This document shows, one piece after another, positions 3,451 to 45,196 of a stretch of 64,000 nt of DNA (position 1 is its first letter; each line of letters opens with the position of its first letter). Position numbers and translations under genes: made by a program. This stretch comes from an uncultured virus (IMG/VR IMGVR_UViG_3300042975_000037) (lineage: Duplodnaviria > Heunggongvirae > Uroviricota > Caudoviricetes). Under the pieces are notes generated by a model. The model did no database searches, was not told the origin of the DNA, and saw only the letters and a list, made by a program, of their open reading frames with translations. The stretch lies in IMG/VR virus record IMGVR_UViG_3300042975_000037; one strand, given 5' to 3'.

Positions 3451-3491
3451 ATAAGAGCGAGAAATTGTGAGATAGAGAAATAGAGAGTCTA

Positions 3492-5531: not shown

Positions 5532-5809
5532 AAATGGAATGGCCAAAAGAATTACTGGAAATTTTTGATGATGCTCTGTTGGATGACGTTCATCCTAAAG
5601 CAGCACCGGTTACGGCGGACGACAGGAAAGTGAAAAAACTGATGGAGATTACGCAGTGGTCGGAAGCGAACGGCCGGAGGGTGCCACGTGAGGATGGTAA
5701 TAGCCTGAAAGAGAAAATGATGGCTCGTGCATTGAAGGCGCTGAAGGATGAGGCGGGTGAAGAACTGGCTGCGTATGATACTTTAAATCTTTTGAAGGGG
5801 GAAAGGTAA
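5528..5809 (+). CDS. small protein resembling the N-terminal segment of YeeC
   Basis: 93 aa; ATGA overlap with the helicase and TAATG overlap with the next gene; ELLEIFDDALLDDV parallels ELDDILNDPLLEI of the next ORF. Confidence 0.6.
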   Translation: MKMEWPKELLEIFDDALLDDVHPKAAPVTADDRKVKKLMEITQWSEANGRRVPREDGNSLKEKMMARALKALKDEAGEELAAYDTLNLLKGER

Positions 5810-7033
5810 TGGATATAAAGAAAGAATTGGATGATATTCTAAATGATCCTCTATTGGAGATTTCTGATAAGGAAAAATCACTTTTTGAAATCCCTTCTGA
5901 CATGAAGAAGGTTCAAGGAGAAAGAAACCAGCCTGATCACTATGCCCAACGGAAGGTGTGCGAAGACTTTGCTCTTTATCAATCTGGGTTTGAACAGATA
6001 CATCGGGATTTGAAACTTGGAAAAAGGAGTTTGTTGAAAACCTCAAAAACTGATAGTATGGTAGAAGGCCGGTATTATGTGGTTGATGGACAGTTGCTGC
6101 TTCTTCAACGCATCGGAAAATATATTCAGGCTGCCAATGGATTGAAGGACGGCCGTACGAGATGTATCATTGAGAATGGGACGGAAACGGATATTTTGTT
6201 GCAAACGCTTCGAAAAAACGTGATGGCAAATGGATATGCCGTTTCGGACACGCAGGAAGAAACGGAGAAATCATTGATGAATTCTGATTCTGTTTTGGAA
6301 GGAGATCAAGAGACAGGATATATTTATGTCTTGAGTTCACTTTCTCAAGAACCGGAGATTGCCTGCCAAAAGGACTTGTATAAGATTGGTTTTACAACCC
6401 ATTCTGTAGAAGAAAGAATTGCCGGTGCAGCCGATGATCCTACTTACCTTATGTCACCGGTCAAAATTGTAGCCACTTACAGAATCATAAATATGAACAG
6501 CCATGTGCTGGAGACTTTGCTTCATCATGTGTTGGATGCTGTACAAATGCAATTCTCAATTAAGGATCGATCGGGAAACTTATGCCATCCCAAGGAATGG
6601 TATGTAGGTTCCGCTGACAGTTATTAATGCAATTATTGGAAAAATTAATGATGGCAGTATTACTAACTACACGTATAATGCCCAACAGCAATGTCTGGAG
6701 CAGACTGTTGTCAAAGAAAGATCGACATTCAATACAAAAGGGATGAAGATTTTGACACTTAACATCAAAAAGGTCTATTTTGATCAGATTATGAGAGGGG
6801 AGAAAACGATTGAATATAGGGAATTGAAACAGACCACTCTCAATAAATATACCTATGTTGATGAGGCTGACGGCAAGCGTTATCTAAGAAGGTATGATGC
6901 GCTCCGTCTCTGTGTGGGCTATCATAGGGACCGCGAGAGTGCAATTGTAGGAGTGAAGAATATATTATATCATAAGGGTGTTGTGGAATATCATCTTGGC
7001 CGTATTTTTGAACATATAGGCTTAAGTAAATAG
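5809..7033 (+). CDS. yeeC: YeeC-type GIY-YIG/T5orf172 nuclease with C-terminal ASCH domain; one +1 frameshift near 6607
   Basis: GYIYVLSS..LYKIGFT..VEERI..PKEWY motifs. Removing one G in TATGTAGGTT gives an uninterrupted reading VVPLTVINAIIGKINDGSITNYTYN...NTKGMKILTL into ORF 6743-7033, which has the ASCH GxKxxExR motif. Confidence 0.75.
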
Positions 7034-7245
7034 TTTTCTAGAACTTCCGGCTGATGCCTTTGGGTACTTTACAATGGACTTGATATCTATGAGAAATACG
7101 ACTGCTTCTCTCTAGGTTCCATCCGTCAGATCGAGCGCTGTTTCTGCGCTTTCACTTTCAGCTTTATGAAAGGAAAAGATATCACATCATAAAGACTTAA
7201 GATCATTCTATTCTTTGATTATTAAAGATTTTAAAACAGAAAAAT

Positions 7246-9006: not shown

Positions 9007-9508
9007 CGTTAGAGATAATGGATTATTAATAAAACTCTTGACAAATGCTACGGTTCTCATCTAAGTGAGAGTAAGGCATAGAAACTAAACGCTCTTGATA
9101 AATTTCTGTTGATGTCTTCTGAAACTTATATCATCTCACGGAACTTCTTCCAGCTCATCTCAAGGCAAAAGGACTCAGGCATATACAAAAAAGTTGGGGA
9201 CTTCTCCTGGAATTTTGGAGAAGTCTGCGAATATCTACCGAAAGCCTTCTTAAATCCTGGGGAAGTTATAGACTTCTATACTAAATCTTGAATTATGCAA
9301 GAGGGGGATGGCTGATGGCTTACCGCATATTTGGCAACATTAGCTTGAGAAATATTCGTGACTATAGTATTGAAAAAGGAGCGTCAACTAAATTGCGTCA
9401 AGATCTGTTGCCCATTAGTAGGTCAGGGCCTAACAGGCCGACGGGCTTTGACACAGTTCATGTGACGCCTCCCATAAAACTTGTAACTCAAAATTCATCC
9501 TTATATTC

Positions 9509-11575
9509 TTAGATTATAGATACTAAAGTACCGTTAGCTCCTTGAATATAATGAATATTTACTGTCTGCTGAGTACAGATTTTATAAGACTGTTTCGACT
9601 GGTTATAAGACTGTTTCAAGCAATAAATATTACTGTAAAGTAAGTTTATTTTATCTATGGGCTCCATATTGGTATCTTGCTCCTCAGATTTTACCACTTC
9701 GCCATAAGGCAATTCGCTCTTCTTTAAGATAATAAACCCTGCGTTGATGCCAGTCAAACCTAATTCAAATATTTGAATTCCATTGTAAGAGAGAATACCG
9801 TCTTTATCCGTTTTTATATAATTCCTAAAATTATAATTTTCAAAAATATCTTTCCAGGAAACAATAACATAGGTGTTGTCAATTCCTTGTTGATCTATTA
9901 AATTCAGAACACCTTCAATAGAAACTTTTACATTCTGATGATTAATGTTTTTTAAAAGAAAACAAAAATATTTTGATTTTAAATCAAACTTTAATTCTTC
10001 AGATATAGCTTTTCCAGCGCCTCCTATCTCTTTTGTAGAACCTTTGAGGACAAATTGTCTTTCTATATCCAAACATCCACATATTTTAATCCGTTTTGAC
10101 TGAGCTTTATCCGAAATACCAGACATGGAACGAATAGGGATAACAGTCCCCCAATTATAATTATCATAAATCAGCTCATCCGCGATTTTTTTTATTTTAT
10201 CAAAATCAAATTCTTCTCGATTATTGATTTCAGCATTTTTTAGTTCAAGATTTTTCTTGAATTCATCAATTTTTGATATAACGACATCTTTATTAGGCAA
10301 ATTATTGAAATTAAATTCTTTCAAAGTAGGGTCCACATACCAATCTTCTACTTTTTTTTGAATATGTTCCCATGCTTCAATCATGTTTTTATTCTTATCC
10401 TGACTTTCTTCATCAGGATTAGGAAGTATTAATGGATCACAATAGTTGATATTATAATCCTTATAAGACCATATACGTATAAACAGCAATGCTAAATAGC
10501 TATATGTATAATCAATGATAATATCTTCCGTTCTTGCACCTTGATCCAAATTCATGAATTGATAACTACTAATGAATAAAAAAGCTTTTTGATCATTACC
10601 TGATAAGAGTTTTGAAAATTGATTGATTTGAGTCATTGTCCCTGGAATCAACTTATAGGATGGTGGTAAAGTTTGAGTATATTTCATGATATGTCTTAAC
10701 CATGAAAATTTTTTTAAAAATACAAGAAGGACTCCAACCATGATATGTCTTTGATAAAACTCAATAGCTGAAGGGTTGGAAGGGCCATAATGTATATTGA
10801 TTGTGAAAAACCTATAGTATTGTTCTGCAAATGTCCAATATTGAGTAAACCATTTATAATTATTTCCATAGACAGCCCAGTTTACCATTTCCCAAGTCGC
10901 GTCATACGTTGCTTTTGATATTAGAGTTTTAGATGCTTGATCATATAGGATGCTGATAATACCATTGTAATTATGTAAGTAATCATCTCTGCTCTCATTA
11001 CCGATTGCTACTGCTATTTTGGAGAGGATGCTTGTTAAATATGTCGAATATACCACGTGATTACCATCCTCAACTTTTTTCTTCTCATTTTCGAACTGGG
11101 TAAAGACTAATTCCCTGCTTTTCATGTAAACATCTGCATCCCTAACTCTTGATGCATAACAGGCAACATCAAATTGAGCTAAAGCTCCTTCACTATTTTT
11201 CTCGTTACCAAGTAGTTCTACAAGTTTTAGGGGATCATAATAAATATTTATCCGCTTATACAAAAATACAGTATTAGCCATTAAGATGCCTATTAAAGCA
11301 AATATAATGCAAATGACTATATACAAAAGATTAGGGGATGTTATTCTTGACAAAACAAAAGGGCTAATAATAGTGACGATTATAAATAATACCAAGAATA
11401 TTTGATAACATAAATATAAAGGCTCCTGACGAAACTTTCTGGCAAGAAGTGATGAACTATATTTTTCATCAATATGTTGTATGCTGCTTAATAGCAATGG
11501 ATAAGACATACCGAAAATAGCAGCGAATACTACAAAGATCGTAGTATAAGAATTGGTTACAAAATCAAATATCAT
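9509..11575 (-). CDS. hypothetical membrane protein (N-terminal TM helices, large soluble domain)
   Basis: 688-aa ORF; about three hydrophobic segments in the first 110 aa; low GC. Confidence 0.75.
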   Translation of the reverse strand: MIFDFVTNSYTTIFVVFAAIFGMSYPLLLSSIQHIDEKYSSSLLARKFRQEPLYLCYQIFLVLFIIVTIISPFVLSRITSPNLLYIVICIIFALIGILMANTVFLYKRINIYYDPLKLVELLGNEKNSEGALAQFDVACYASRVRDADVYMKSRELVFTQFENEKKKVEDGNHVVYSTYLTSILSKIAVAIGNESRDDYLHNYNGIISILYDQASKTLISKATYDATWEMVNWAVYGNNYKWFTQYWTFAEQYYRFFTINIHYGPSNPSAIEFYQRHIMVGVLLVFLKKFSWLRHIMKYTQTLPPSYKLIPGTMTQINQFSKLLSGNDQKAFLFISSYQFMNLDQGARTEDIIIDYTYSYLALLFIRIWSYKDYNINYCDPLILPNPDEESQDKNKNMIEAWEHIQKKVEDWYVDPTLKEFNFNNLPNKDVVISKIDEFKKNLELKNAEINNREEFDFDKIKKIADELIYDNYNWGTVIPIRSMSGISDKAQSKRIKICGCLDIERQFVLKGSTKEIGGAGKAISEELKFDLKSKYFCFLLKNINHQNVKVSIEGVLNLIDQQGIDNTYVIVSWKDIFENYNFRNYIKTDKDGILSYNGIQIFELGLTGINAGFIILKKSELPYGEVVKSEEQDTNMEPIDKINLLYSNIYCLKQSYNQSKQSYKICTQQTVNIHYIQGANGTLVSII

Positions 11576-12045
11576 TTGTTGTTAATTTTTACTTTATGAA
11601 TGACTTTACTATTCTGATTTAATATGAGTTGGTCTTGCTTTTGAAGTTCTGCCTTCATGTCATTTTCAACTCCAAATAAAGAATCTAAATTAATGTTTCC
11701 AGTGAAGTCTGGCTTCTGATTTCTCGGAATTATTGGATAAAAAAGAACGGAAATCAATAGAAAGACTGATGCTCCAAGAATTAGAAGGCCTGTTATTATA
11801 TTTCCAATATTTATTGGTTTCTTCGCTTTTTTATTGTGCTTATTATCAACGTTTTTGTTTATATTACAGTTAACGGTTGATTCGTTAACATACGAGTTGA
11901 AAAGTTTATCCTGTTTTACCCATTCCTCAATTACGGCGATAGGAACTTGATAATTCTTTGATAAATCAGTAACCTTACCACCAGAATGGAACTCTTTTAA
12001 GATGGATTTTTTTTGTTCTTCAGATACTTGTTTCCTTGAAATCAT
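11572..12045 (-). CDS. HTH + single-TM protein
   Basis: SEEQKKSIL..GGKVTDLSKNYQVPIAVIEEWVKQ resembles a transposase-type HTH; hydrophobic segment IITGLLILGASVFLLISVLFY; ATGA overlap with the downstream gene. Confidence 0.6.
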   Translation of the reverse strand: MISRKQVSEEQKKSILKEFHSGGKVTDLSKNYQVPIAVIEEWVKQDKLFNSYVNESTVNCNINKNVDNKHNKKAKKPINIGNIITGLLILGASVFLLISVLFYPIIPRNQKPDFTGNINLDSLFGVENDMKAELQKQDQLILNQNSKVIHKVKINNK

Positions 12046-12085
12046 GATACATTTTCTTCAAAGTTGTAAATACCTCATTAAGTTA

Positions 12086-12212
12086 CCATTCTTGATTATC
12101 TGTAACTTGACACTGCTGATACTTTAATTCTGTCCGTGTGATATAAACTGTCTGGGCAGCAGCAAACAGAGCTGCAAAGCAAAGGGGGAAAAACGAATAA
12201 AGATCTCTTCAT
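12086..12212 (-). pseudogene. possible remnant of a small exported protein (TVYITRT motif)
   Basis: The minus strand reads a frameshifted signal-like start followed by AQTVYITRTELKYQQC, a degenerate TVYITxTGxKYH..C motif. Confidence 0.25.
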
Positions 12213-12390
12213 GTTTACTTAAGTTTTAGAATTATTTCAGTTATCAAATTCCACGATGAATTCAACTAATTGCCCTCAAAGATAGCTATTTAATCAATAG
12301 ATTCCAACTTTTTTACATTTTTGATACCAAGTTGTATTAATTTGAAACAAATGTGTATACAGATGTGTATACTAACTGAGGTAAAAGTGC

Positions 12391-12465
12391 TATATTTGTA
12401 ACGTGTTTTTATAGTATTAGATTTAAAAGGGCGGGAGTACGTGATGTATTCTCGCCCTTAATTAT
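12391..12465 (+). ncRNA. candidate small RNA: -7 promoter box, short body, terminator hairpin
   Basis: TATATTTG at 12391, then GTGTTTTTATAGTATTAGATTTAA, then hairpin AAGGGCGGGAGTAC-GTGAT-GTATTCTCGCCCTT (12427-12459); no ORF. Confidence 0.4.
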
Positions 12466-13197
12466 TTAATAGTACGTAATTGTTTTACTTTCTTCGCTAT
12501 TCCAAAATTCTTCGTTTTCAGACAGTTTATCTTCAAGTATATCAGATACTCTCTTTTCATATAATTCAATGACCTTATTATATTCAGCACTAATAGTGCT
12601 AAATCCATCTGCTTTTTTTATTTCTTTTTCTTGCTTAGCTATTAAGGTATCGTAATCTTTAATAGTCTTTTCCAATTTACGAGAAGGACCACCATTAATA
12701 TTGTTAGCATATATGTTCTTGAATGAGTTACTATCAATATGACAAATGCATTTTTTCATATAAGAAAAAATCATGTTACATTGGGTTTCGTCCGTTTTAA
12801 CTGATAAAATTAAAGTTCTATGAAATTCAACAAATGATATTAGTTGTGCTCTTGGATCATTATCAGAAGAACTTCTTAAGGCATAAATAATACTAAGCTC
12901 TTCTTGCATATTAAAACTTTGTTGCTGTATCTCCTTTCTTGATTTGTCGTATAACTTTCTCAATTTGGTTGATGCTTCTTCTAAATTAGAGAACTTTTCC
13001 TTTATTTGCAAAGCATTTACGATCTGATAACCAATAATAAAAGTTACAGCTATACCAATACAAGCGGTGCATACGCCAATAAAGGTATTGGAATCCACAA
13101 CACTATTGGGTGACACTTTAACAAAAAATAGTATAATTGTGACAATAGATAGCACAATAGCTATAATTGAAATAATGACGCTAATATCTTTCTTCAT
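12466..13197 (-). CDS. hypothetical protein, two N-terminal TM helices and a coiled coil
   Basis: 243-aa ORF; hydrophobic residues ~6-26 and ~39-60. Confidence 0.7.
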   Translation of the reverse strand: MKKDISVIISIIAIVLSIVTIILFFVKVSPNSVVDSNTFIGVCTACIGIAVTFIIGYQIVNALQIKEKFSNLEEASTKLRKLYDKSRKEIQQQSFNMQEELSIIYALRSSSDNDPRAQLISFVEFHRTLILSVKTDETQCNMIFSYMKKCICHIDSNSFKNIYANNINGGPSRKLEKTIKDYDTLIAKQEKEIKKADGFSTISAEYNKVIELYEKRVSDILEDKLSENEEFWNSEESKTITYY

Positions 13198-13297
13198 TGT
13201 TTTTAATTTTATTCGTTTTCACGTTGAGGCTTTTTTTAATTATCCTTCCTCTATCTGGGAAAGAATTAGGATCTTAGGTATACTATCAACTGCCTCT

Positions 13298-14728
13298 TTA
13301 CATCATATTGTTGAAATGCTCCAGCAGTTCTATTCGGTTAAAAATATATTTTAAATTTCCATGATACATACTAGTACGATCTGAATAGTATTTAAGAGCT
13401 TTGGCTAAATATGCTTTGTTAATTACTTTACATTCAAATTGAGAAGTTAATTGACCATCATTTCCAGGTTTTATGATAAAATCTTCATATCGGTCTCCGC
13501 TTTTATTGATATTATAGCTATTAATCAATTCTCCTACTGTGTATATTATGTAACTATCTTTTTCAAAATCTTTATCTGACGACAATAAACTGCCTGGAAT
13601 TTTTTCTTCTATTTTATCAATTAGTTGCTGTATTGAATATTTATGTATTTTAATATTTTTATAAAATTCTGTGTCAGTAATTTTCCAGTAACACAACAAA
13701 AAAAACATATCTGGGAATAAATATGTATTTTCTTTAAACCCTAACAAAGTTAGGCGGGTATGTGCGAAAATTTTGTCAACTGTCCGCAAACTTAAGTGGC
13801 TATCTTGTGTAATTGAAGAAGCAATTTCTAAAAATTCCTCTTTTTCATCTGTATCAGGAAAAGACTTTCTTCGGTCTGGATTTTCAAAGAAGTCCTTAAA
13901 CCCGTATGTATCATATAAAAGTAAACAATATTTCTCCATATCAGGTTCTGGAAGAGTATATTCAATATCTATAAAACGACGCAAATAAGCATTAGCGTTC
14001 ATTTGATTACTTCCAAAATATCCCTGAATAGCGCAGCCTAATTGTTTTTTGTTTACAGCCAATACAAATACAATTTGGGGAATATCAAAAAGATGTTTTA
14101 TCCTTTCTAACACCTTCACTGCATAAGTCGGGTTACACCGATCAAGTTCATCTACAAAAAACACTATAGGTTTACTTTCACTGGCATTTGATTCTACAAA
14201 TTTTTTTAAATATTTTTTAAATTCTTCGAAAGATGATTTCTGTTTTTCATATTCTTTAAGGTAATCATTTCCAATATTTGAGATTTCATTTACAGCTGCT
14301 CCTATAGCATCACTATCTACCCCTGTTGTTTTCTTTATAAGGTCTTTAATTATGACGACACCAGCACTTAGAGCAATTCTTCCACCAGCAGAAATCAGTT
14401 TTTTATAATTACTGTTTTTTGATTTTAGACTTTTAAATTCTGATAACATAGCAATAAGTGGATCCGTTGTATAATCTGACTCCCACGCATTGAAGTATAA
14501 GGTCTTAAATTTTTCTTTTTCAAGTTGTTGTTTCCACATTTTTACAAATGTGGTCTTACCGGATCCCCATTCTCCATTTAAGGCTAATACACATCCCGAT
14601 TTGCTATACACAGAAACAATATCCGTCAGAATATCGGCGTATTTTTTCCTATCCAGTGCACAATTTTTAAAAGGCTCTTCTTCTGGAATATCTATTTCAT
14701 CAGAATGACTTTTTAAGTTTTTCTCCAT
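13298..14728 (-). CDS. KAP-family P-loop NTPase
   Basis: LNGEWGSGKTT Walker A, YFNAWESD, IVFFVDELDRCNP Walker B, YLRRFIDIEYTLP. Confidence 0.9.
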   Translation of the reverse strand: MEKNLKSHSDEIDIPEEEPFKNCALDRKKYADILTDIVSVYSKSGCVLALNGEWGSGKTTFVKMWKQQLEKEKFKTLYFNAWESDYTTDPLIAMLSEFKSLKSKNSNYKKLISAGGRIALSAGVVIIKDLIKKTTGVDSDAIGAAVNEISNIGNDYLKEYEKQKSSFEEFKKYLKKFVESNASESKPIVFFVDELDRCNPTYAVKVLERIKHLFDIPQIVFVLAVNKKQLGCAIQGYFGSNQMNANAYLRRFIDIEYTLPEPDMEKYCLLLYDTYGFKDFFENPDRRKSFPDTDEKEEFLEIASSITQDSHLSLRTVDKIFAHTRLTLLGFKENTYLFPDMFFLLCYWKITDTEFYKNIKIHKYSIQQLIDKIEEKIPGSLLSSDKDFEKDSYIIYTVGELINSYNINKSGDRYEDFIIKPGNDGQLTSQFECKVINKAYLAKALKYYSDRTSMYHGNLKYIFNRIELLEHFNNMM

Positions 14729-21981: not shown

Positions 21982-22194
21982 ATGAATTTCAGCAAAAGAA
22001 AAATTATCCGAAGCGTGCATGATGGTGATGTGCTTACGCTTGTTCTTTCGCAAGAAAGCGAGCGTGCGTGGCGTCAGAGAGTGCATGAGATCAACAGAGA
22101 GGATGGGTGGGAGCACTACCGTATCTCTAAAAATAGCAAGTTGGACACGCTTGCTATTATTGCGAATGTAAAACTTATAAAACATAAATTATGA
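21982..22194 (+). CDS. hypothetical phage protein
   Basis: 70-aa ORF coupled to the next gene (ATGA). Confidence 0.6.
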   Translation: MNFSKRKIIRSVHDGDVLTLVLSQESERAWRQRVHEINREDGWEHYRISKNSKLDTLAIIANVKLIKHKL

Positions 22195-22547
22195 AAGTAC
22201 TGAAATTGATTATCAAGCAGAAGTACTTTGACCAGATTATGGCCGGTACGAAAAAGCAAGAGTTCCGGGACATCAAGCCTTCCACGGAAAAGAAGTATAT
22301 CCGGATTGACAAAGATGGGTATGCTCTGAATGATAAGAACGGCAATAATATCCCAATCAAGTATGATGCGATCCGCTTTTATGTAGGCTATGCCAAAAAT
22401 CGTGCAACGGCTTTGGTAGAAGTGAAAGGTGCACACTCTGAGACTTATGTAGATGAAAACGGCAAGCCTGTTATGTGGCCACAGTATGGGCCGGATTACT
22501 GGGCTGAGAGAATGGTCTATGATCTGGGTAAAGTGATTAATGAATGA
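22191..22547 (+). CDS. ASCH-domain protein
   Basis: LIIKQKYFDQIMAGTKKQEFR (GxKxxExR), YDAIRFYVGY. Confidence 0.85.
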   Translation: MKVLKLIIKQKYFDQIMAGTKKQEFRDIKPSTEKKYIRIDKDGYALNDKNGNNIPIKYDAIRFYVGYAKNRATALVEVKGAHSETYVDENGKPVMWPQYGPDYWAERMVYDLGKVINE

Positions 22548-25606: not shown

Positions 25607-27192
25607 GGGGCACATGTATAAATCCGTGTTGACTATAAGAAGATAAAGGTTGAAGTTATAAGTTGTAGAATGCAAGAAAGAGCGTATCTTTGCATCCATG
25701 AACAACAATAACAATAAATCCTATGAGTTCTTTGCAAGTTTCCTTCTTCCGGAAGGTATACTTGATTGGTTTGACCTTGTAAAGGTAGAAGAAGAGAAGT
25801 TGAAGATCTCTAAAAAGAACGTGTACACCGGCATACTACATGTATATCTTGATGAGCGGGACAACCGGAAGTCCGGTGAAGAGTCCCTGCAGGAACTTCG
25901 CCCCAATGGTTTCACGGAGCCGGCTCTTGTCAACGACTTTCCAATCCGTGACAAGAAGGTAGTCCTTCATATCCGTCGCCGGAGATGGACTTCTCCCGAC
26001 GGGCATAACGTCGTCCTGAATGTCTATCCACTGGCAGTGACAGGGACCCGCTACTCGAAGGAGTTTGCGGATTTTTTAAAAGAACGTCTTGGATACATCC
26101 CCGGTGACGGCACGTTCGCTGGAACCTTACTACAAGATTAACGGGGATCGCCTTGAACGGGCATACAAGGATTATCTGAGCGACTTCCGGCAATGGGAGC
26201 AGAAGCCTCATGCATCCGACTGGATATTGCTGGAGAAAAATATGGGTCCCAGGCTAAGCATAGACGAGACATCCCTGCAGGAAGACCTGTTCACGATCCT
26301 GTCCAACAAGGATGGCCATGGGAGACGCGGAACAGTGATTGCAGCCGTACGGGGGACGAAGGCATCGGAGGTAATCCGTATCCTCATGCAGATACCACAG
26401 GAGAAGCGTATTGAGGTCAGGGAAGTGACCATGGACTTCTCGGACAGCATGTATTCCATCGTGAGTGCAGTCTTTCCTAATGCGACAATAGTGATCGACT
26501 GTTTCCATATCATCAAGCGATGCGGTGACGCGGTGGAGGAAATCCGTCTCCGCAGCAAGCGTGAGGCAATAAAGGATCAGCGTAAAAGACAGGCGGAGTT
26601 CAGAAACAAACTTGAGCAAAGGGTGAAGCAGCGTAAATACTATCGCAAAAAACATCCCAGGAGGTATAAAGGCAGAAAGCGTGGCAGGAAGCCTGTTAGA
26701 CTCAATGAGCGCTTTAAGCCGGAGATACTTGACAACGGCGATACCGGAGTCGAGCTGCTCACAAGAAGCCGGGGACTACTGAGGGTAAGCAGAAACAACT
26801 GGAGCGATACACAGAAGATCAGGGCCGGATTGCTCTTCTCTTTATACCCAAAGATAAAAGAAGCGTATAACCTTGTCGACAGCCTCAGAAATATCTTTAG
26901 AATGAAGACTCTGGACAGAGTGAACGCCAGAAACAGACTGCATGAATGGTATAAGAAGGTTGCCGGCTGCTCCCTGAGGGAAGTCAAGTCTGCAAGGGAT
27001 GCCGTCAGGTTCAAGGAAGAGGAAGTGCTCAATTACTTTATCAACAGGTCAACCAATGCCGCTGCTGAATCACTCAACTCCAAACTCAAGAGATTCAGAG
27101 CGCAACTGCATGGAGTCTCTGATCTTACCTTCTTCATGTATAGAGTTTCCTTGATCTTTGGGTAAACTAACACGGAACTATGCTGGTGCCCC
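25607..27192 (+). mobile_element. ISL3-family (ISAon1-like) insertion sequence
   Basis: Ends GGGGCAC.../...GTGCCCC; 8-bp TSD GTGATTTG at 25599-25606 and 27193-27200. Confidence 0.9.
25698..27165 (+). CDS. ISL3 transposase in two overlapping ORFs (25698-26141, 26089-27165), probably joined by a -1 frameshift
   Basis: DFPIRDKKVVLHIRRRRW in orf1; SIDE, VTMD, DCFH, TNAAAESLNSKLK in orf2; slippery TTTTTTAAAA at ~26072-26081. Confidence 0.85.
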
Positions 27193-28608: not shown

Positions 28609-28839
28609 ATGAAGAATGTAGTATCAGTGTTAGGAGAAACAGTACAGAAAAAATATGGTGAGAACATCGTAACTTCTGTTCTTGGAAAACGTGGGCCAGA
28701 TAATGAGCCTACTGTTTCTGTTAGAATTGACTTACCAAATGATAAGTCTTATTTTGGCGAAGGTTCCAATAAGCATATAGCTAAGGAGAATGCAGCAAAA
28801 GAAGCACTTAAAAAAGAATTTGGTTATGACGTTAGATGA
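28609..28839 (+). CDS. stand-alone double-stranded RNA-binding domain (dsRBD) protein
   Basis: VSVLGETVQK, GPDNEPTVSVRI, GEGSNKHIAKENAAKEAL match the dsRBD consensus (L.E..QK, GP.H.P.F.V.V, GEG.SKK.A.Q.AA..AL). Confidence 0.75.
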   Translation: MKNVVSVLGETVQKKYGENIVTSVLGKRGPDNEPTVSVRIDLPNDKSYFGEGSNKHIAKENAAKEALKKEFGYDVR

Positions 28840-34635: not shown

Positions 34636-36337
34636 GGGTCCGCTGATTTATTTTCATCAGCCGATGGCGAGAAGGGGAGTTTTCTCGGCCACCTGACTTT
34701 GATTTCTAAAAGTCCCGGTATTTTCCGGGATTATTCTGATGATTTCCATCATTTCAATAAGGGCATAAAGAAGTTCCCTGAAGAACTTCATTATATTTTT
34801 CACGAAGTAGCACGCGCCAACCCATGAAGCTCCCGTATCAGCACGTTTTGCCCTGATGTTGTTTGCCCTGTATATCCGCTTGCCCGTTCCAAAGGTTGCC
34901 TCCACTTCATTCCTTTCACCGACGTTCCTTGCCATAAGGTCGTGATATTCCTTGGTGTTCTGCTCCTTTGACGGCCTGCCCAGAGGTTTCCCGCCTATTT
35001 CTATTCCAAGCAGACGGAGAATCTGACGGTTCCATCTGTTCATGTATATCTTGTCCGCTTCCACCTTGGCAGGAAGATTTCCGAACCTTTTCTTATATGC
35101 TCTCAGATGAAGCATGAGATCGTCGCATTCATTATAGGCATCCCAGCTATGGTGGTCGATAAACGTGTATCCCTTCACCACGCTTACGCCTATCTTTGCC
35201 CCGAACTCTGTCTTTGCCTTTGCCTTGCCCCTGACTATCGGCCTTACAAAGGGCTGGTACAGGCTGATGATCCGGTCCTTGCATACATGTACATGATTGA
35301 CAAACATTTCTTTCTGCTGTTTCCACATCTTTATCGTGGTGAAGAACAGGCTGCGGTCACGCGGCTTAAGCGAAAAGAAGTAGTTGCTGTCAGCCTTGCC
35401 AAATATCCCCAGGGCCGTACTGATGTTCCTCCTGAGGCGGGCCAGCATGTATTCCATACATTCCCTGACATTCTTCTTCGGCTTCTTCCGCAGCTTGATG
35501 ACGTTCAGATACCGGGAATGGATTTCCTTCAGGTGGGTTTCCGGACGGGGAAGGCCTGTCATCCTGCAGAAACGGTCCAGTATCCTGTCTACGACCTCTA
35601 CGCCGTCATTAAGGAGGTCCAGGTCCGTCGGATACCGTACTTCCGAGTCCGAGCATGTCGCGTCTATCTTCATCAGGCCTTCATTCGGCTTCGGGGATGA
35701 CGGCTTTGTGCCGGAATACGGCTTATCGGATGATTCACCGGTTGCTCCTCCTTTATCGTTCCTGCCTTTCCCCTGATTGTCCTCTTCTTCTTCCTTCTGC
35801 TTCTTGTCATACATCCTGACCTGAAGTTTCAGAAGCGACTCGCTCATGTCATTGTAATCCTCTATGCCCAGACGCTTGCGGACTGACACGAAAAGAGAGG
35901 GGTCAAAGACCGGCTGGTCCGTGTAGGCGGACAGTCCCAGCAGGTATTGCATATAAGGGTTCTCACGGATGGCTTCTATGGTCTCCACGTCCGAAAGGCT
36001 CAGCTTGTGCTTGATAAGAAGGGCCCCGATGATCATGCGCGCCGGCTTGTTGCCCGCTCCGTTATGGACATTATGCAAACGGCTGTTATAGATCTTTTCG
36101 ATCTTCTCCCAGGGAAGGGTGTCGCCCAGCTTTATCCACCGGTTGCTCTTCGGGAGATCCTCAAGAGAGGATCGGAATGCTTCAAGTGTCAGCTCCCGGT
36201 TTTGTGATTTGAACTTCATTTTTGCTTGCTTTTAACGCTCAAAGTTACAAATTTTCCGTGAATTGACCAAATGTTACATCATGTATCTTGCTGATAATCA
36301 ATGAAATAAATGTTAAATCAACTTATTCAGCAAACCC
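34636..36337 (-). mobile_element. IS5-family insertion sequence
   Basis: Imperfect TIRs GGGTCCGCTGATTTA / GGGTTTGCTGAATAA; 6-bp TSD TATTTA at 34630-34635 and 36338-36343. Confidence 0.9.
34657..36219 (-). CDS. IS5-family transposase
   Basis: ENPYMQY, IDATC..YPTDL, RPIVRGKA..EFGAK, ADKIY, RNEVEATFG. Confidence 0.92.
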   Translation of the reverse strand: MKFKSQNRELTLEAFRSSLEDLPKSNRWIKLGDTLPWEKIEKIYNSRLHNVHNGAGNKPARMIIGALLIKHKLSLSDVETIEAIRENPYMQYLLGLSAYTDQPVFDPSLFVSVRKRLGIEDYNDMSESLLKLQVRMYDKKQKEEEEDNQGKGRNDKGGATGESSDKPYSGTKPSSPKPNEGLMKIDATCSDSEVRYPTDLDLLNDGVEVVDRILDRFCRMTGLPRPETHLKEIHSRYLNVIKLRKKPKKNVRECMEYMLARLRRNISTALGIFGKADSNYFFSLKPRDRSLFFTTIKMWKQQKEMFVNHVHVCKDRIISLYQPFVRPIVRGKAKAKTEFGAKIGVSVVKGYTFIDHHSWDAYNECDDLMLHLRAYKKRFGNLPAKVEADKIYMNRWNRQILRLLGIEIGGKPLGRPSKEQNTKEYHDLMARNVGERNEVEATFGTGKRIYRANNIRAKRADTGASWVGACYFVKNIMKFFRELLYALIEMMEIIRIIPENTGTFRNQSQVAEKTPLLAIG

Positions 36338-38788: not shown

Positions 38789-40116
38789 GGTTCATCCGAC
38801 ATTTCGAGTGATACGGCAATCATGGAGGGCGTAAAGCCTTAGCATAAAATACCGTTCATCTCGGAATCCATATGCATTTCGTTTCATGACCTTGATCTTG
38901 TTATTAATGCCTTCGACTTTACCTGTAGAAATCTGGCAATCATACCAGGCCAAAATTCCACTTCTATATAGCATGAGCGTATTTGCCATCTTCACAAGTT
39001 GTGGAATTTTGCTTTCCCTTGCTTGCCTTACCCAGTCATATAGTACAGCTGAAGCCTGTTCCTTATTTGTTTGTGCCCAGATTTCTCTCATCTGCTCTTT
39101 CAAGTAGTAGGCTTTGGATAAAGGTTCATTCATGGCGAGCGCATTATCCAGCCGAGTCTTGTAATGCTTGTCAAATATATCCGCACCATTTCCTAAGAGC
39201 AGAAATCTTGTACCTTTAAGGACCTTGCGTTTATTGATATCCTTCTCCATAGCGTAAACCTTTCTTCTTATGTCGTCGAGATGTTCATTCATCAGCTTTA
39301 CAACATGGAAATGGTCGAATACATGCACAGCACTAGGACAGTTCTCAAGGACAGAAGCAATGAAAGCAGCAGACAGATCTGTTGCTATATGTTCTATCTT
39401 TACCTTATGTCGTTTGACCCTTTTCCAAAACTTTTTGAGAGCGTCAATTCCTTTTCCATCACCCACATAGAGTATCCTGCCCGAGTCAAGATCAACGACA
39501 ATAGTTTTGTATATATGACCCTTTCTAACAGCAAACTCATCAATGCCTATGTTCTTGACTCCTTTTAGGGAGGGCGGGCAATAGTGCCGCAATAGGTGGG
39601 TGGAATGTATCTCCTTTACCGTATTCCAAGAAATGCTCAGATGATTTGCAACATCCTGCAATGTCATTCCACGGAGGAGATCTACTACGTACTTGGCAAA
39701 TCGATGGGTATACGAGCGGCTGCCTGTAGCAAAAGGGATATTCTCCTGCTGATCGTAGTCACATCCTTCATTCCTGCACTTGTATCGTTGTACTTTCATA
39801 CGGATAAGAACTTTCTTGCCCCCGATTGGAAGACCGACAAAGTCTCTGATACGATATCCATTCTTGACCAAATGGAGTTTTCCGCATTTGGGGCATAAAA
39901 GTAATCGCTTTTTGCTTTGGACATGAAGAATAATTGTATTACCTTTGTATTCCTCTCTAGTACATTCGAGGCTGTAAAGCCCCCAAGCGTGATATAGAAA
40001 ACTGCTGTTCATTGTTATATATTTGTTTGTGGAAATTCAAATATACACAATAAATTCAGTAGTTTTCTTCTTTTTCCTACAATCTTCTATCTATCACTCC
40101 ATTTTTCGGAAGAACC
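38789..40116 (-). mobile_element. ISL3-family insertion sequence
   Basis: TIRs GGTTCATCCGA / GGTTCTTCCGA; 8-bp TSD AATCTTAT at 38781-38788 and 40117-40124. Confidence 0.92.
38792..40012 (-). CDS. ISL3 transposase
   Basis: CPKCG zinc finger, IGIDEF, FDHFHVVK, STGKVEGINNKIKVMKRNAYGFRD. Confidence 0.95.
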   Translation of the reverse strand: MNSSFLYHAWGLYSLECTREEYKGNTIILHVQSKKRLLLCPKCGKLHLVKNGYRIRDFVGLPIGGKKVLIRMKVQRYKCRNEGCDYDQQENIPFATGSRSYTHRFAKYVVDLLRGMTLQDVANHLSISWNTVKEIHSTHLLRHYCPPSLKGVKNIGIDEFAVRKGHIYKTIVVDLDSGRILYVGDGKGIDALKKFWKRVKRHKVKIEHIATDLSAAFIASVLENCPSAVHVFDHFHVVKLMNEHLDDIRRKVYAMEKDINKRKVLKGTRFLLLGNGADIFDKHYKTRLDNALAMNEPLSKAYYLKEQMREIWAQTNKEQASAVLYDWVRQARESKIPQLVKMANTLMLYRSGILAWYDCQISTGKVEGINNKIKVMKRNAYGFRDERYFMLRLYALHDCRITRNVG

Positions 40117-40194
40117 AATCTTATGTCTTTCAGTCTCTATAAGATATGTATTGTCACTAATTTTACAAGTGATGTTTAATTTAATTGTAAGATT

Positions 40195-40368
40195 ATGGCA
40201 AAACAAAGAGGTAGTCGTGTGACTGCTTATTCAACAAGCAATTATCGTGGTGGCAGGCGAGGTCTGACAAACTCTACTACGGGCAGGGTATCAAACGGCG
40301 GACGGTATATGAGCCGTCGGGGTGTATATGGGCAGGTACGTAGGTCTTTAGGTATGTCGGGCGGATGA
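40195..40368 (+). CDS. 57-aa Arg/Gly-rich peptide ending in Gly-Gly
   Basis: MAKQRGSRVTAYSTSNYRGGRRGLTNSTTGRVSNGGRYMSRRGVYGQVRRSLGMSGG*; ATGA overlap with the next gene; below the ORF-track cutoff. Confidence 0.75.
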   Translation: MAKQRGSRVTAYSTSNYRGGRRGLTNSTTGRVSNGGRYMSRRGVYGQVRRSLGMSGG

Positions 40369-41054
40369 CAAAGTTATTATCATCTGTAGGCGCAATCAAG
40401 AGGGTAGCGGATAAGACAGATTCCGTTATCCTCTTCGACAGTACCGGTAAGGACAGTCTTGTGACGCTTGACCTTATCTATCCGTATTTCAAGAGAATTG
40501 TCTGTGTGTTCATGTACTTTGTCAAGGGGCTGGAGCATGTAGACCGTTATCTACGCTGGACGAAGGCCAGATACCCGAAAGTAGAGATTGTTCAGATACC
40601 CCACTGGAATCTGACGTACGTATTGCGTGGTGGTCTTTATTGCGTTCCTGATCCTAAGATGAAACTTCTCAAACTGAAAGACATTGTGTATGCCATGAGA
40701 CTGAGGTTCGGTATACACTATGTGTTTTTAGGAATGAAGAAGGCAGATTCAATGAACAGGCGCCTGATGCTTATGACCTATCAGAATTGCGAGAACAACG
40801 GGCTTGTATACCCTCTTTCGGAGTGGACGCAGAAGGATATATTAGCGTATATGCGTCAGAATAACTTGCCACAGCCGATAAGGTATAATCCTGATAAACC
40901 ATCTTCGGGCGTAGGGCTTAATCTTGACTGTTTCCTGTGGATGAGAAAGAATGCTCCACTTGATTTACAGAAAGTCCTGAAAACGTTCCCGATGTCGGAA
41001 AGAATATTGGACGAATATGATTATCAGCAAGGAAAGGAGAAAACAAATAAATGA
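40365..41054 (+). CDS. PAPS-reductase-family / PP-loop adenine-nucleotide hydrolase
   Basis: VILFDSTGKDS PP-loop, GMKKADSMNRR, YPLSEWTQKDILAY. Confidence 0.85.
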   Translation: MTKLLSSVGAIKRVADKTDSVILFDSTGKDSLVTLDLIYPYFKRIVCVFMYFVKGLEHVDRYLRWTKARYPKVEIVQIPHWNLTYVLRGGLYCVPDPKMKLLKLKDIVYAMRLRFGIHYVFLGMKKADSMNRRLMLMTYQNCENNGLVYPLSEWTQKDILAYMRQNNLPQPIRYNPDKPSSGVGLNLDCFLWMRKNAPLDLQKVLKTFPMSERILDEYDYQQGKEKTNK

Positions 41055-41791
41055 GTGAGATTTCAAAATATATCAAGAGTACCCCAGTGGTACTGAACCG
41101 TTCGCAGATACACTTTGCATCCTATAATCCCCGTACAATCTCTGATGAGGGCCGTAAGTCGTTGAAGCGAGGGATAAAGAAGTTCGGTATGCTCGGCGGA
41201 ATAGTAGTCAACAAGACTACAGGTTATACAATCGTTTCCGGCCACCAGCGTGTTTCTGTGATGGATGAATTGCAGAAGTACGATGAAAAGACAAAGGCAA
41301 ATGACTATACTCTTCGTGTTGACCTTATTGAGGTTGATGAGAAGGGCGAAAAGGAGTTGAATATTCTCCTAAATAATCCTAATGCGCAGGGCGAGTGGGA
41401 CTACGATAAGATGCGTGAACTTATTCCCGACATTGACTATAAGGACGCCGGCCTTAATGAGTCTGACCTGAGTCTGATAGGATGTGACCAGCTATTCAAG
41501 ACCGAAGAGGAAAACAATATCTCTGATGAGATTGAGAAGATGCAAGAGCCTGTTAAAGAGCAGAAGGAACAGGAGAAGGCTGCAAAGGCCGAGCACATGA
41601 AGGCCGTCAAACAGGAGGTCCGTGAATCGGCAGACAAATCGGCGGCGAACATGGACGCATACATCATGTTATCCTTTGACAGCAATGACAGTAAGATAGC
41701 TTTTTGCAAGAAGTACGGTCTTGATCCTGATAACAAGTTTATCAAGGGCGAGGATTTCGACCATATCATTGATGATGTAATAGAAGGGTAA
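41051..41791 (+). CDS. ParB/Srx N-terminal domain protein
   Basis: YNPRTI..LKRGIKKFG..IVVN..IVSGHQRV..EKELNILLNN. Confidence 0.85.
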   Translation: MSEISKYIKSTPVVLNRSQIHFASYNPRTISDEGRKSLKRGIKKFGMLGGIVVNKTTGYTIVSGHQRVSVMDELQKYDEKTKANDYTLRVDLIEVDEKGEKELNILLNNPNAQGEWDYDKMRELIPDIDYKDAGLNESDLSLIGCDQLFKTEEENNISDEIEKMQEPVKEQKEQEKAAKAEHMKAVKQEVRESADKSAANMDAYIMLSFDSNDSKIAFCKKYGLDPDNKFIKGEDFDHIIDDVIEG

Positions 41792-41798
41792 GAAGATT

Positions 41799-42392
41799 AT
41801 GGCAAAACCACGGCATGATTATGACTCAAACGATTTCTACGAACTGATACGTCAGCTTGCAATGAACGGGTTTACTGATAAGGAGATAGCTCACCACCTT
41901 AACTTAGAGCCTGACACTTTCGGCGCAATGAAAAACGGAAGCTATGAGTCCTGGTCAGCAGCAAAAAACAGAAAACGTGGTAAGCGTATCATCGGGGTGT
42001 TGACATCCGCGCGCTCGAATGTAGTAGCCGGAGTGCGGAGTGCTTTTATCCGTTCAGCCCTTGGTGGCAAGATAATACATAGCAAGACGAAGAACTATGT
42101 CAGACAGAGATGTAAGTGTAATGGCAATGATCCGAATTGTCCCTATTGCGGTGGTACAGGGTGGATAACGCTTACCGATAAGGCTGTAGTGACGGAGACA
42201 GAGACGGAGCTTGCCCCGAATACTCGTGCGCAGGGCACACTCCTTTTCCATTATGATCTTGACTGGCGGAAGGTAGAAAGGAATCAGGATGAGGATGAAG
42301 ATAAGAATAATATCAGTCATGGTGTAGACATCTCGAAGTGGATAGCCGAAGAGACGAAAGATACGGAGAAGAGCGATGATAAAGACGCATAA
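41799..42392 (+). CDS. terminase small subunit (HTH plus Cys4 insertion)
   Basis: GFTDKEIAHHLNL HTH; CKC..CPYCGGTG; ELAPN; directly upstream of the large subunit. Confidence 0.7.
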   Translation: MAKPRHDYDSNDFYELIRQLAMNGFTDKEIAHHLNLEPDTFGAMKNGSYESWSAAKNRKRGKRIIGVLTSARSNVVAGVRSAFIRSALGGKIIHSKTKNYVRQRCKCNGNDPNCPYCGGTGWITLTDKAVVTETETELAPNTRAQGTLLFHYDLDWRKVERNQDEDEDKNNISHGVDISKWIAEETKDTEKSDDKDA

Positions 42393-43665
42393 ATGTTATT
42401 TGCCTTTGTATTCTGATAAGAAACATTTTATCATTCTTATCACTGGCGGACGTGGGAGCGGAAAATCCTTCGCCCTTTCAACCTTTGCCGAGCGCCTTAC
42501 TTTTGAGTTGTTCAAGGATGAGTCAAGGAAGGTAGCAAGGAAAGTCGTTCATAATATCCTGTATACTCGTTATACGATGGTCTCTGCCAATATCTCAATT
42601 ATTCCTGAGTTCCTCGAAAAGGCAGAATTTGACGGTACGAGCAGATTTTTCCATGCTACAAAGACAGACGTGATCAACAAGCTCACGGGCTCTAAGATCA
42701 TGTTCCGTGGTATCAAGACCTCTTCAGGTAATCAGACGGCCAAACTGAAATCCATTCACGGTATTACTACATTCATCGTTGACGAAGCCGAGGAGTGGGC
42801 ATCGGAGAAGGAGTTTGAGACTATTATGCTCTCAATCCGCCAGACCGGTATACAGAACAGAATCATCATTATTATGAATCCTACTGACAATAATCACTGG
42901 GTTTATAAGAGATTTATAGAAAAGACACATAAGGAAGTGATGTATGACGGTGTGTCCGTTCAGATCAGCACTAATCCGAATGTGCTTCACATTCATACGA
43001 CCTACCTCGATAATCTGGAAAACCTATCTCCGGAGTTTCTGAAAGAAGTAGAAGAGATGAAAGTCAATGATCCGGAGAAATACGCACATACCGTCATTGG
43101 CCGTTGGGCAGATGTTGCCAAGGGTGCCGTGTTCAAGCATGTGAGTGTAGTACGGGAGTTTCCGAAGTGGTGCAAGCATGTTGCAGTTGGTCAGGACTTT
43201 GGCTATACTAATGATCCGTCTGCTTCCATTAGATGCGGAGTTATAGGCAACGACTTGTATCTTGATGAGATAGACTACCGTACAGGATTACTTTCGAGTG
43301 ACATCATAAAGGTATTACGGCCTTATGGACTGAAAGTCATTGCCGACAGTGCGGACCCACGGCTTATACAGGAGATACACAACGGTGGTGTGAAGATTTA
43401 CCCGGTTGAGAAAGGTCCGGGATCTATCAACGCCGGAATAGATAAGATGCAGAGCATGAATATCTTTGTTACCGAACATTCGTATAATCTCCGGAAGGAG
43501 TTCAGAAACTACGTCTGGGCGAAAGACAAAGACGGTAATTATATCAATGAGCCTGAGGATCATGATAACCACGGCATAGACGCTGCGAGATATTATATTC
43601 TGGGCGAACTATTGGGGAGAATACAGAAGCCACGAATTGACATTGCAGCGGCTTTCGCAAGATAA
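42376..43665 (+). CDS. terL: terminase large subunit, PBSX family
   Basis: GGRGSGKS, VDEAEE, MNP, GQDFGYTNDP, DSADP, NHGIDAARY. Confidence 0.95.
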   Translation: MIKTHKCYLPLYSDKKHFIILITGGRGSGKSFALSTFAERLTFELFKDESRKVARKVVHNILYTRYTMVSANISIIPEFLEKAEFDGTSRFFHATKTDVINKLTGSKIMFRGIKTSSGNQTAKLKSIHGITTFIVDEAEEWASEKEFETIMLSIRQTGIQNRIIIIMNPTDNNHWVYKRFIEKTHKEVMYDGVSVQISTNPNVLHIHTTYLDNLENLSPEFLKEVEEMKVNDPEKYAHTVIGRWADVAKGAVFKHVSVVREFPKWCKHVAVGQDFGYTNDPSASIRCGVIGNDLYLDEIDYRTGLLSSDIIKVLRPYGLKVIADSADPRLIQEIHNGGVKIYPVEKGPGSINAGIDKMQSMNIFVTEHSYNLRKEFRNYVWAKDKDGNYINEPEDHDNHGIDAARYYILGELLGRIQKPRIDIAAAFAR

Positions 43666-43675
43666 ATTGAATATT

Positions 43676-45196
43676 ATGGTTATAACAGGAACATCAGCAA
43701 CAACACCATCAACCTTGGAAGAGGTTTTGGCCCTTCCGAATGAGGAAATGAAAATATATTATCTCATGCACGGGCGGAGGTTTCCGAATCCTGATCCTCT
43801 TGCACTGTTAAGGGACTGGGATCCTCGCCGGCATAAGATCATGGATCCTAATGAGTACAAGAAAATACGGGTGCTTAAAAAACCGGCATGGGTAGAATAT
43901 GATGACAATACGAAAACATCTGTTCAGCATTCTAATGAATATGAAGAAAAAGAGCCGAACAGGATTGCACTTCCTATAGAACAGGATCAGGTGAATATTC
44001 ATACGGCCTTTACTGTCGGCACCGAGCCGACTTTAGACTGTACACCGGCAGATGATAGCGAAAGTGCATTGTTAGGCTGTGTCAAGAGAGTTTTCAACAC
44101 CAACAAGCTGAAGTATCAGAACCGGCAGATAGTCCGCTCATGGCTTTCTGAGACAGAGGTGGCGGAATACTGGTATATTGTTCCTGACGACGGGTTCTGG
44201 CCAAAGCTGAAGAAGAAATATCCTGATGTATTCGGTAATGTGCCACCGATGTATAAGTTAAAGTGCCAAGTATGGTCGCCTTTTCGGGGAGATACTCTTT
44301 ATCCGTTTTATGATGATGGGGGGAATCTTGTTGCGTTCTCACGTAGATATAAGACAGTTGACCTTTCGGGGGCGGAGCATGAATGTTTCATGACCGTCAC
44401 TGATACGATGGTATATCAGTGGGATTTGAGCAAAACATGGCAGCCGAATTCCGTTCGTACTTTTAAGCATGGATTTACAAAGTTGCCGGTTATCTATGCT
44501 CACAGGCCGAACACGCTTTGCGAGAAGATACGTCCTATCAGGGAGCGTCTTGAAAAGTGTCTGTCTGGCTATGCTGATTGTATTGATTTCCATTTCTTCC
44601 CGATCTTAATGTTGTTCGGAGACTTGGATAATGTGAAGAATACTGATATGCGTAATCGTATTATGCAGATGACTGGTACTGATGCTAAGGCTGAATATCT
44701 TACATGGGATCAGGCGTCCGATCCCGTAAAGGTAGAGATTGATACTTATTTTAACCAGGCATACGCTCTGACAAATACACCACGTATCTCTTTTGATCAG
44801 ATTAAGGGTACAACCGCCCTTAGCGGTGTGGCATTCCGATATGTCTTTATGGGCATCCACGCAGCTGTCGAGAATCATGCAGAGGAGCTTGGCCCGTTCT
44901 TTCAACGCAGGGTAAACTTCATTATATCGGCCCTTGGTTCAATCAACACGACTCTTTGGCAACCATCAAAGACTCTGGAGATTAACACGGAGATTGTGCC
45001 ATATATCATTGATTCTGTTGATGATAAGGTTACGACTGCTGCCAAGGCTGTTGAAGGTGGCGTATGGTCAACGGAGCATGGTGTGGCTTTCTGCTCTGAC
45101 TATGGTGAGACCAAAGATGAGGTGGAGCAGATTATGGAAGAGAAGCAGAAAACCGCACAACCTACGGATGACAATGGCCAGCAGACCGGAAAATGA
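43676..45196 (+). CDS. SPP1-like portal protein
   Basis: ~506 aa after terL; HGFTKLPVIY, AEYLTW, LSGVAF. Confidence 0.85.
   Translation: MVITGTSATTPSTLEEVLALPNEEMKIYYLMHGRRFPNPDPLALLRDWDPRRHKIMDPNEYKKIRVLKKPAWVEYDDNTKTSVQHSNEYEEKEPNRIALPIEQDQVNIHTAFTVGTEPTLDCTPADDSESALLGCVKRVFNTNKLKYQNRQIVRSWLSETEVAEYWYIVPDDGFWPKLKKKYPDVFGNVPPMYKLKCQVWSPFRGDTLYPFYDDGGNLVAFSRRYKTVDLSGAEHECFMTVTDTMVYQWDLSKTWQPNSVRTFKHGFTKLPVIYAHRPNTLCEKIRPIRERLEKCLSGYADCIDFHFFPILMLFGDLDNVKNTDMRNRIMQMTGTDAKAEYLTWDQASDPVKVEIDTYFNQAYALTNTPRISFDQIKGTTALSGVAFRYVFMGIHAAVENHAEELGPFFQRRVNFIISALGSINTTLWQPSKTLEINTEIVPYIIDSVDDKVTTAAKAVEGGVWSTEHGVAFCSDYGETKDEVEQIMEEKQKTAQPTDDNGQQTGK

Follow-up and report, generated by a model that had tools for sequence, protein, structure and literature searches.

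The 64,000-nucleotide (nt) stretch of DNA in the IMG/VR virus record IMGVR_UViG_3300042975_000037 (the window) contains, directly ahead of the genes for a PP-loop enzyme and a ParB-like protein, a short gene for a basic peptide of 57 amino acids. With high confidence, the peptide is a genuine small protein that belongs with the PP-loop/ParB pair, and its family, undescribed and unnamed, comes from phages and prophages of gut Bacteroidota. Judged from its sequences, the constrained feature of the family is a tail of small residues that ends in Gly, and not a Gly-Gly pair. The three genes are as follows:

40195 to 40368, plus strand: small basic protein, 57 amino acids, an open reading frame (ORF) read from the sequence, with an Arg/Gly-rich body and the tail LGMSGG
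40365 to 41054, plus strand: PP-loop ATP pyrophosphatase of the 3'-phosphoadenosine 5'-phosphosulfate (PAPS) reductase family, IbrA-like short form, 229 amino acids (PF01507, phrog_424)
41051 to 41791, plus strand: ParB/Srx-fold protein, IbrB-like, 246 amino acids (phrog_9353, phrog_620)

The peptide contains 12 Gly, 11 Arg, and 1 Lys and neither Asp nor Glu, and an in-frame TAA lies upstream of its ORF at 40177 to 40179. Its TGA stop codon overlaps the ATG of the PP-loop gene (ATGA at 40365 to 40368), and the PP-loop and ParB-like genes overlap likewise by an ATGA of 4 nt. Together they are the opening genes of a rightward block that continues into terminase and portal genes, and the nearest upstream ORFs lie on the opposite strand, with an ISL3-family insertion in between. 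A preliminary description of the window had reported exactly this basic ORF with its LGMSGG end, its coupling to a PP-loop and then a ParB/Srx gene, and the place of these genes at the head of a packaging operon, and all of these points hold.

Codon evidence for translation and definition of the peptide family

The preliminary description took the ORF to be translated, and the codons support this. The ratio of nonsynonymous to synonymous polymorphism (pN/pS) is 0.23 to 0.29 among ten distinct sequences of the window's own subfamily and 0.15 to 0.34 among thirty sequences of a larger subfamily, for which the other two frames give 1.0 and 1.4. For the conserved Ser of the tail, codons of the TCN and AGY types are both in use, and the Gly codons are variable, which argues against an RNA element or ribosome site as the cause of its conservation. 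On this codon evidence, the ORF is judged to be a genuine translated gene under purifying selection. The likelihood that it is a chance or untranslated ORF, conserved as a DNA or RNA element, is next to nil; it is indeed short, of low complexity, and without a family name, but the low pN/pS is found in the peptide frame only, the Ser codons switch between codon families, and the homologues described below number 179 and share two specific motifs.

These homologues were retrieved with a profile built from 15 variants of the peptide, which was searched against a collection of 5.8 billion proteins and matched 179 of them at an E value of ≤0.01. All are unnamed or labeled "hypothetical," none carries a Pfam domain, and their sources are Prevotella, Bacteroidaceae, and Caudoviricetes records; a protein with 91% identity in a Prevotella metagenome-assembled genome (P0005) is likewise labeled "hypothetical protein." Pfam, PHROGs, and NCBIfam gave no family for the peptide or nine of its relatives, even at E values up to 10, and a protein Atlas search with the peptide gave no usable match.

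Full-length members of the family have about 52 to 68 amino acids, with N termini that vary among MA, MP, MG, and MN. Most members have RRNMNGAGxGGRLVxRR as the first conserved block, and the subfamily of the window has YRGGRRGLT; the second block, QLGSRRQRYxDxRxxF, is followed by the tail. The mean composition of 120 homologues is 20% Arg plus Lys and 4% Asp plus Glu. A low-confidence AlphaFold2 (AF2) model of the peptide, built with 66 sequences and with a predicted local distance difference test (pLDDT) score of 61.6, shows residues 1 to 17 as disordered, a helix at residues 41 to 51 over the second block, a tail in coil conformation, and no sheet.

Two ribosomal proteins were considered as relatives and rejected. 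A resemblance to L34 had no support from Pfam, and a resemblance to uS15 at both ends of the protein was not significant, with an E value of 1.2 in a profile search of the PDB and an hhalign probability of 0.1 to 0.2% against four Bacteroidales S15 sequences.

The peptide is linked to the PP-loop/ParB pair rather than to packaging

The linkage between the peptide and the enzyme was read from both directions. With the PP-loop protein as query, 80 IMG/VR loci with 64 to 100% identity were collected, and in 77 of them a homologue of the peptide gene lies upstream of the PP-loop gene and ends within a few nt of it; in the other three loci, the DNA upstream is limited to 6, 43, and 235 nt. In the enzyme clade of the cultured Bacteroides phage BS-TP2 (gp52 to gp55), which is 35% identical to the window enzyme, the peptide is present in 80/80 loci by manual tally. 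With the peptide as query, the PP-loop gene follows within about 200 nt downstream in all of the best 80 of 418 IMG/VR matches. A further 13 loci from genomes of Muribaculaceae, Bacteroides, Porphyromonadaceae, Lepagella, and Paramuribaculum include 12 with downstream DNA, and in all 12 an ASCH gene precedes the peptide gene and the PP-loop and ParB genes follow it. A peptide gene lacking the enzyme was found in none of 92 peptide-first loci, the IMG/VR part of which consists of those best 80 of 418 matches.

This pattern bears on the idea that the peptide has a function unrelated to the enzyme, either in the virion, as an internal protein or one packaged to condense DNA, or as an Arg-rich regulator of late genes that shares the operon. 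Such a role would suit a basic protein that opens the packaging operon in the window. It is nevertheless improbable, since the peptide tracks the PP-loop/ParB pair and not the terminase, no locus in the peptide-first set has it apart from the enzyme, and no PHROG structural family matches it.

The genes concerned in the question of packaging, together with the ASCH-like gene of the window, are as follows:

41799 to 42392, plus strand: TerS, the terminase small subunit, a neighbor outside the conserved module (phrog_309, E value of 2e-17)
42376 to 43665, plus strand: TerL, the terminase large subunit, also a neighbor (Terminase_3, 1.2e-28; Terminase_3C, 1.5e-17)
43637 to 45196, plus strand: portal protein of the SPP1 type, from a Pfam/PHROG scan of the window ORFs
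22191 to 22544, plus strand: ASCH-like gene of the window prophage, found by tblastn with the ASCH protein of locus L047 (38% identity, E value of 8.6e-23)

The coupling to terminase and packaging that the preliminary description proposed does not stand. In five genome loci (L248 to L252), the module is present and TerS and TerL of the window type were not found; in one of them (L250), unrelated genes follow the ParB-like gene, with no terminase. The conserved unit is therefore (ASCH)-peptide-PP-loop-ParB, with the terminase as a frequent neighbor. Because the unit occurs with no adjoining terminase, the link of the peptide is to the IbrA/IbrB-like enzyme pair and not to packaging.

The association with ASCH, which had also been suggested, is confirmed by its regular occurrence in relatives, as in the 12 genome loci above. 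In most relatives, the ASCH homologue directly precedes the peptide gene; the window copy lies 18 kb away. The ASCH protein of L047 scores above the Pfam ASCH cutoff (24.5 versus 21.2 bits), and the window copy at 22191 to 22544 has no Pfam match. A second short ASCH-like ORF is found in the window at 6743 to 7030, within a defense island.

In five loci (L012, L013, L018, L047, and L052), the peptide gene lies about 765 nt upstream of the PP-loop gene. The genes in this gap were read in L047 only, where a homing endonuclease of the HNH_3/NUMOD4 type (3325 to 4008) is situated between the two genes. An ORF related to this endonuclease insert also lies upstream in L049.

The C-terminal tail

The preliminary description had emphasized a C-terminal Gly-Gly. 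The final Gly is indeed largely conserved, as it ends 107 of 120 database homologues. Of 176 distinct tails, 150 end in Gly, 14 in Lys, and 12 in some other residue, and a number of these 12 are plainly products of read-through or frameshift. The pair is not conserved, since GG ends 44 of the 120 homologues, and 45 of the 80 loci of the BS-TP2 clade end in Lys. The penultimate residue varies freely in the 120 database proteins (G in 44, T in 20, A in 16, N in 10, Q in 7, V in 4, and S in 3), so that Gly-Gly does not appear to be the conserved unit. The length of the tail past the helix anchor is 5 residues in 115 of the 176 tails and 4 to 12 residues in nearly all. In two proteins (P0001 and P0072), the RxQRYxDxRxxF block is duplicated in tandem, and the GLSQG (GLSxG) tail is present once, at the very end.

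The PP-loop enzyme and its ParB-like partner

The product of 40365 to 41054 matches Pfam PAPS_reduct (PF01507) with an E value of 1.4e-8 and 35.4 bits against a cutoff of 22.5, as well as phrog_424 with an E value of 2e-25, and 41 relatives share its PP-loop word S26-x-G28-K29-D30-S31 without exception. With the NCBIfam models of CysD and CysH, it scores 15 to 24 bits, far under the cutoffs of 154 to 413, and by these curated models it is neither a PAPS reductase nor CysD. An AF2 model of the enzyme (pLDDT of 77) resembles LarE, TilS, TtuA, and FAD synthase (E values of 2e-7 to 1e-5; template modeling score of about 0.5), and the fold matches include TtuA in complex with TtuB (5gha). A sequence search of the PDB detected CysD alone, with an E value of 1e-3; CysD is an adenylyl-transferring enzyme.

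CysH has a conserved catalytic Cys at its C terminus, and IbrA has a C-terminal DUF3440 domain. The window enzyme has no Cys in its last 30 residues, and no Pfam family besides PF01507 was found in it at an E value of ≤0.01, hence no DUF3440. Cys47 is the sole Cys that the window enzyme shares with those of BS-TP2 and RAP44. On these sequence grounds, a mechanism by iron-sulfur cluster or persulfide is unlikely, and amide-forming chemistry of the kind performed by TilS, QueC, and Asn synthetase would be more likely than sulfur chemistry.

The product of 41051 to 41791 matches phrog_9353 (E value of 5.8e-87) and the ParB-like phrog_620 (6e-26); its match to Pfam ParB_N, at 20.8 bits and an E value of 4e-4, lies under the cutoff of 26.3.

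The window pair is a variant of the widespread and uncharacterized IbrA/IbrB-type cassette. The names IbrA and IbrB, which have a history in Escherichia coli, occur as a SEED label and in two phage-genome papers. Like the IbrA/IbrB cassettes, the window has the same pair in the same order, tightly coupled and in a position often found ahead of the terminase; unlike them, its enzyme is short and lacks DUF3440, and the small basic protein and ASCH are outside the described pair. In the literature searched, no paper was found that unites ASCH, the peptide, and the IbrA/IbrB-type pair. Such pairs are among the commonest uncharacterized cassettes beside phage packaging genes, and papers usually assign them to sulfur metabolism.

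Proposed function of the peptide

The best single reading, tentative and short of probable, is that the peptide serves the PP-loop enzyme as a protein substrate or carrier and that its C-terminal tail enters the PP-loop site. In its favor are the near-absolute linkage of the two genes, the selection on the peptide frame, the constrained last residue beside a free penultimate one, and the single tail at the very end of P0001 and P0072, along with the PP-loop fold of the enzyme, its sequence kinship with CysD, and its single shared Cys. The flexible tail would extend into the ATP site, where its free terminal carboxylate would be AMPylated (adenylated); this carboxylate would be the "first substrate," taking the part played by carboxylates in other PP-loop enzymes. 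The activated carboxylate would then be captured by a nucleophile, which may be ammonia or an amine of DNA, RNA, or a protein. In this scheme, the Arg-rich body would act with the ParB-like partner to keep the reaction on nucleic acid, and ASCH, with its PUA-like fold, would read or trim the product. A more specific and rather doubtful version is a non-ubiquitin-like tagging system of Bacteroidota phages, in which the C-terminal Gly of the Arg-rich peptide would be AMPylated and then amide-linked to a base of phage DNA or RNA or to a protein, with the ParB-like protein as the targeting factor and ASCH as the reader or eraser.

The closest mechanistic precedent for this reading, and a recent one, is that of QatC and Cap9, QueC-like PP-loop enzymes of QatABCD and of type IV CBASS (cyclic oligonucleotide-based antiphage signaling system). 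As reported for these enzymes, the long N-terminal tail of the partner protein, with a conserved Gly2, occupies the active site as second substrate, and Cap9 covalently links the partner tail to a carboxylate that it has itself AMPylated (PMC13376578). The likeness of QatC-QatB and Cap9-CdnD to the window consists of a PP-loop ATP pyrophosphatase gene beside the gene of a partner with a flexible tail ending in a conserved Gly. The differences are that the window enzyme is of the PAPS_reduct family and not QueC-like, that the conserved Gly of the peptide is C terminal, in contrast to the N-terminal Gly2 and its amine nucleophile in QatB and CdnD, and that those systems belong to host defense, whereas the window has a phage operon. 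Because the Gly is at the other end and the PP-loop family is different, the peptide system may work like QatC and Cap9 but is not a member of their group.

A prediction of the complex of enzyme, ATP, and peptide, with a score of 0.01, weighs neither for nor against the peptide being a substrate or carrier. Several points weigh against it. In the QatC-QatB and Cap9-CdnD precedent, the terminal Gly is the nucleophile and not the AMPylated group. Plain nucleic-acid binding would also fit a very basic, disordered protein. The Lactobacillus phage LR1 has a related enzyme and a ParB-like gene with no such small ORF; the peptide is thus not a requirement of the enzyme family. By manual tally of the listed rows, the 45 Lys-ended loci of the BS-TP2 clade close with GGK, GSK, or GDK, and the remaining 35 have a terminal Gly, as in GANGSNG. 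A few natural variants end in GLSAT, GLTPK, GGAV, GVPT, or GASI. In the Riemerella phage RAP44 and one relative, the same slot is taken by a basic ORF of 44 to 47 amino acids that ends in NGAI or RAGL and shows no detectable homology to the peptide family. Finally, one database protein (P0243) is a fusion of peptide and enzyme in which Gln replaces the stop codon; if this fusion is functional, a free C terminus is not required.

Nearly as likely, although still on the unlikely side, is that the peptide is a noncovalent accessory subunit: an Arg/Gly-rich chaperone or adaptor that binds nucleic acid, which the PP-loop/ParB pair would modify, with the tail serving for docking or regulation. The basic composition of the 120 homologues, the disordered N-terminal part of the AF2 model, and the adjacency and overlap of the genes, which is typical of complex subunits, all suit this role, as do the presence of the enzyme family without the peptide in LR1 and the tolerance of tails ending in Lys and other residues. 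Binding alone would leave unexplained why the last residue is so much more constrained than the penultimate one across tails of different length, and the conservation of specific motifs goes beyond mere composition.

The substrate or carrier reading also invites comparison with ubiquitin-like proteins, ThiS, MoaD, and TtuB, in which, too, a small protein is encoded beside an enzyme that uses ATP and the C-terminal Gly is important. The peptide differs from these in being highly basic and mostly disordered, with no beta-grasp fold predicted in its low-confidence AF2 model. No Pfam match to E1-like proteins (ThiF/MoeB) was found among the 9 plus 44 window ORFs scanned, which reach up to 45.2 kb. 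The preliminary description had likewise seen neither an E1 nor a beta-grasp fold. A ubiquitin-like reading thus fails on the predicted fold and on the absence of E1 among the scanned ORFs; the picture from the GG motif is mixed.

The same evidence bears on a role as a sulfur carrier, in which the C-terminal Gly would be thiocarboxylated and the PP-loop enzyme would pass the sulfur on to DNA or RNA in the manner of TtuB and TtuA. The appearance of TtuA, including the 5gha complex, among the fold matches of the enzyme and the membership of the enzyme in the Pfam-domain family of DndC-type enzymes would agree with it. The lack of a predicted beta-grasp fold in the peptide, of an E1/ThiF match among the 53 ORFs, and of a conserved Cys cluster in the enzyme, in which one Cys is common across clades, together with tails that are not strictly GG, makes such a role very improbable.

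Small disordered or very short peptides with a C-terminal residue that is activated with ATP are known from Pup and PafA and from the microcin C pair MccA and MccB. PafA is glutamine synthetase-like and MccB is E1-like, and the terminal residues are Gln or Glu and Asn, respectively. The peptide system is unlike both in the fold of the activating enzyme and in the terminal residue, and no PafA or MccB homologue was seen among the 53 window ORFs scanned.

A dedicated partner with a constrained free terminus, in a large clade of gut-phage cassettes, offers a concrete and inexpensive handle on the target of the enzyme by way of a mass shift in a peptide of 4 to 7 kDa. If the tail is activated, the system would add a second and independent example of protein termini being modified by PP-loop enzymes, in phages and at the C terminus. 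If the more specific tagging version is true, it would mirror the recently discovered "deazaguanylation" that QueC-like enzymes perform at the N terminus, and the long-unsolved IbrA/IbrB pair would have its first substrate. If the tail is not activated, the peptide is still a new and abundant small protein of gut Bacteroidales phages, often missed or given the wrong start by gene callers.

Start codons and fused forms in relatives

In relatives in which ASCH lies directly upstream, the conserved N-terminal codons of the peptide start right after an in-frame TGA, within the fixed word TGAGTY (TGAGTC or TGAGTT). This arrangement is present in L003, L011, L020, L082, L213, L250, and about 120 other loci, all of them relatives and not the window. 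No ATG, GTG, or TTG is found in these relatives for 11 to 19 codons, and their N-terminal codons are under purifying selection (pN/pS of 0.23 to 0.34). Lineages with no adjacent ASCH, including the window, have a normal ATG. Read-through of the stop codon or a simple frameshift from ASCH is excluded, as all three possible relations between the ASCH and peptide frames occur. T4-like hopping between matching codons is excluded as well, since ASCH ends with a GTY codon in some lineages only.

A search for longer, fused forms gave five matches, as follows: two ASCH-peptide forms in which the TGA is read as Trp, the peptide-enzyme form in which the stop codon has become Gln, one assembly chimera, and one in-frame deletion that joins ASCH and peptide. 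These forms, found among P0241, P0242, P0243, and P0245, are rare and too thin to decide anything.

Genomic context of the window

The window is a bacterial stretch that consists of a defense island followed, from about 17.5 kb, by a prophage with an S24 repressor, NinG, and a helicase. The insertion ahead of the peptide gene is as follows:

38790 to 40116, minus strand: ISL3-family insertion (DDE_Tnp_ISL3, E value of 2.4e-69, with helix-turn-helix and zinc-ribbon domains)

This element ends 78 nt upstream of the peptide ATG and lies between 9-bp repeats, AATCTTATG, which represent the target repeat. It is not present in L002, a relative with 92 to 98% identity, and the junction of the empty site occurs in contigs of four wastewater runs. 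The runs that contain the stretch are labeled RNA, are "probably DNA," and are represented by contigs only, with no bearing on transcription. The ISL3 insertion separates the operon from its native upstream region.

Three transposase genes break up the window prophage, which, with these three insertions, may be decaying. The further transposase genes are located at 26089 to 27165 on the plus strand (DDE_Tnp_ISL3 without the N-terminal domains) and at 34657 to 36219 on the minus strand (DUF772/DDE_Tnp_1_2). Beside NinG in the early region of the prophage, at 28609 to 28839 on the plus strand, is the gene for a stand-alone protein of 76 amino acids with a double-stranded-RNA-binding motif (dsrm, E value of 4.8e-8). 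The defense-type island spans 658 to 14728 and encodes a full MmeI-type enzyme of 930 amino acids, a DEAD/ResIII helicase, a T5orf172 protein, a SIR2_2 protein, and a KAP NTPase.

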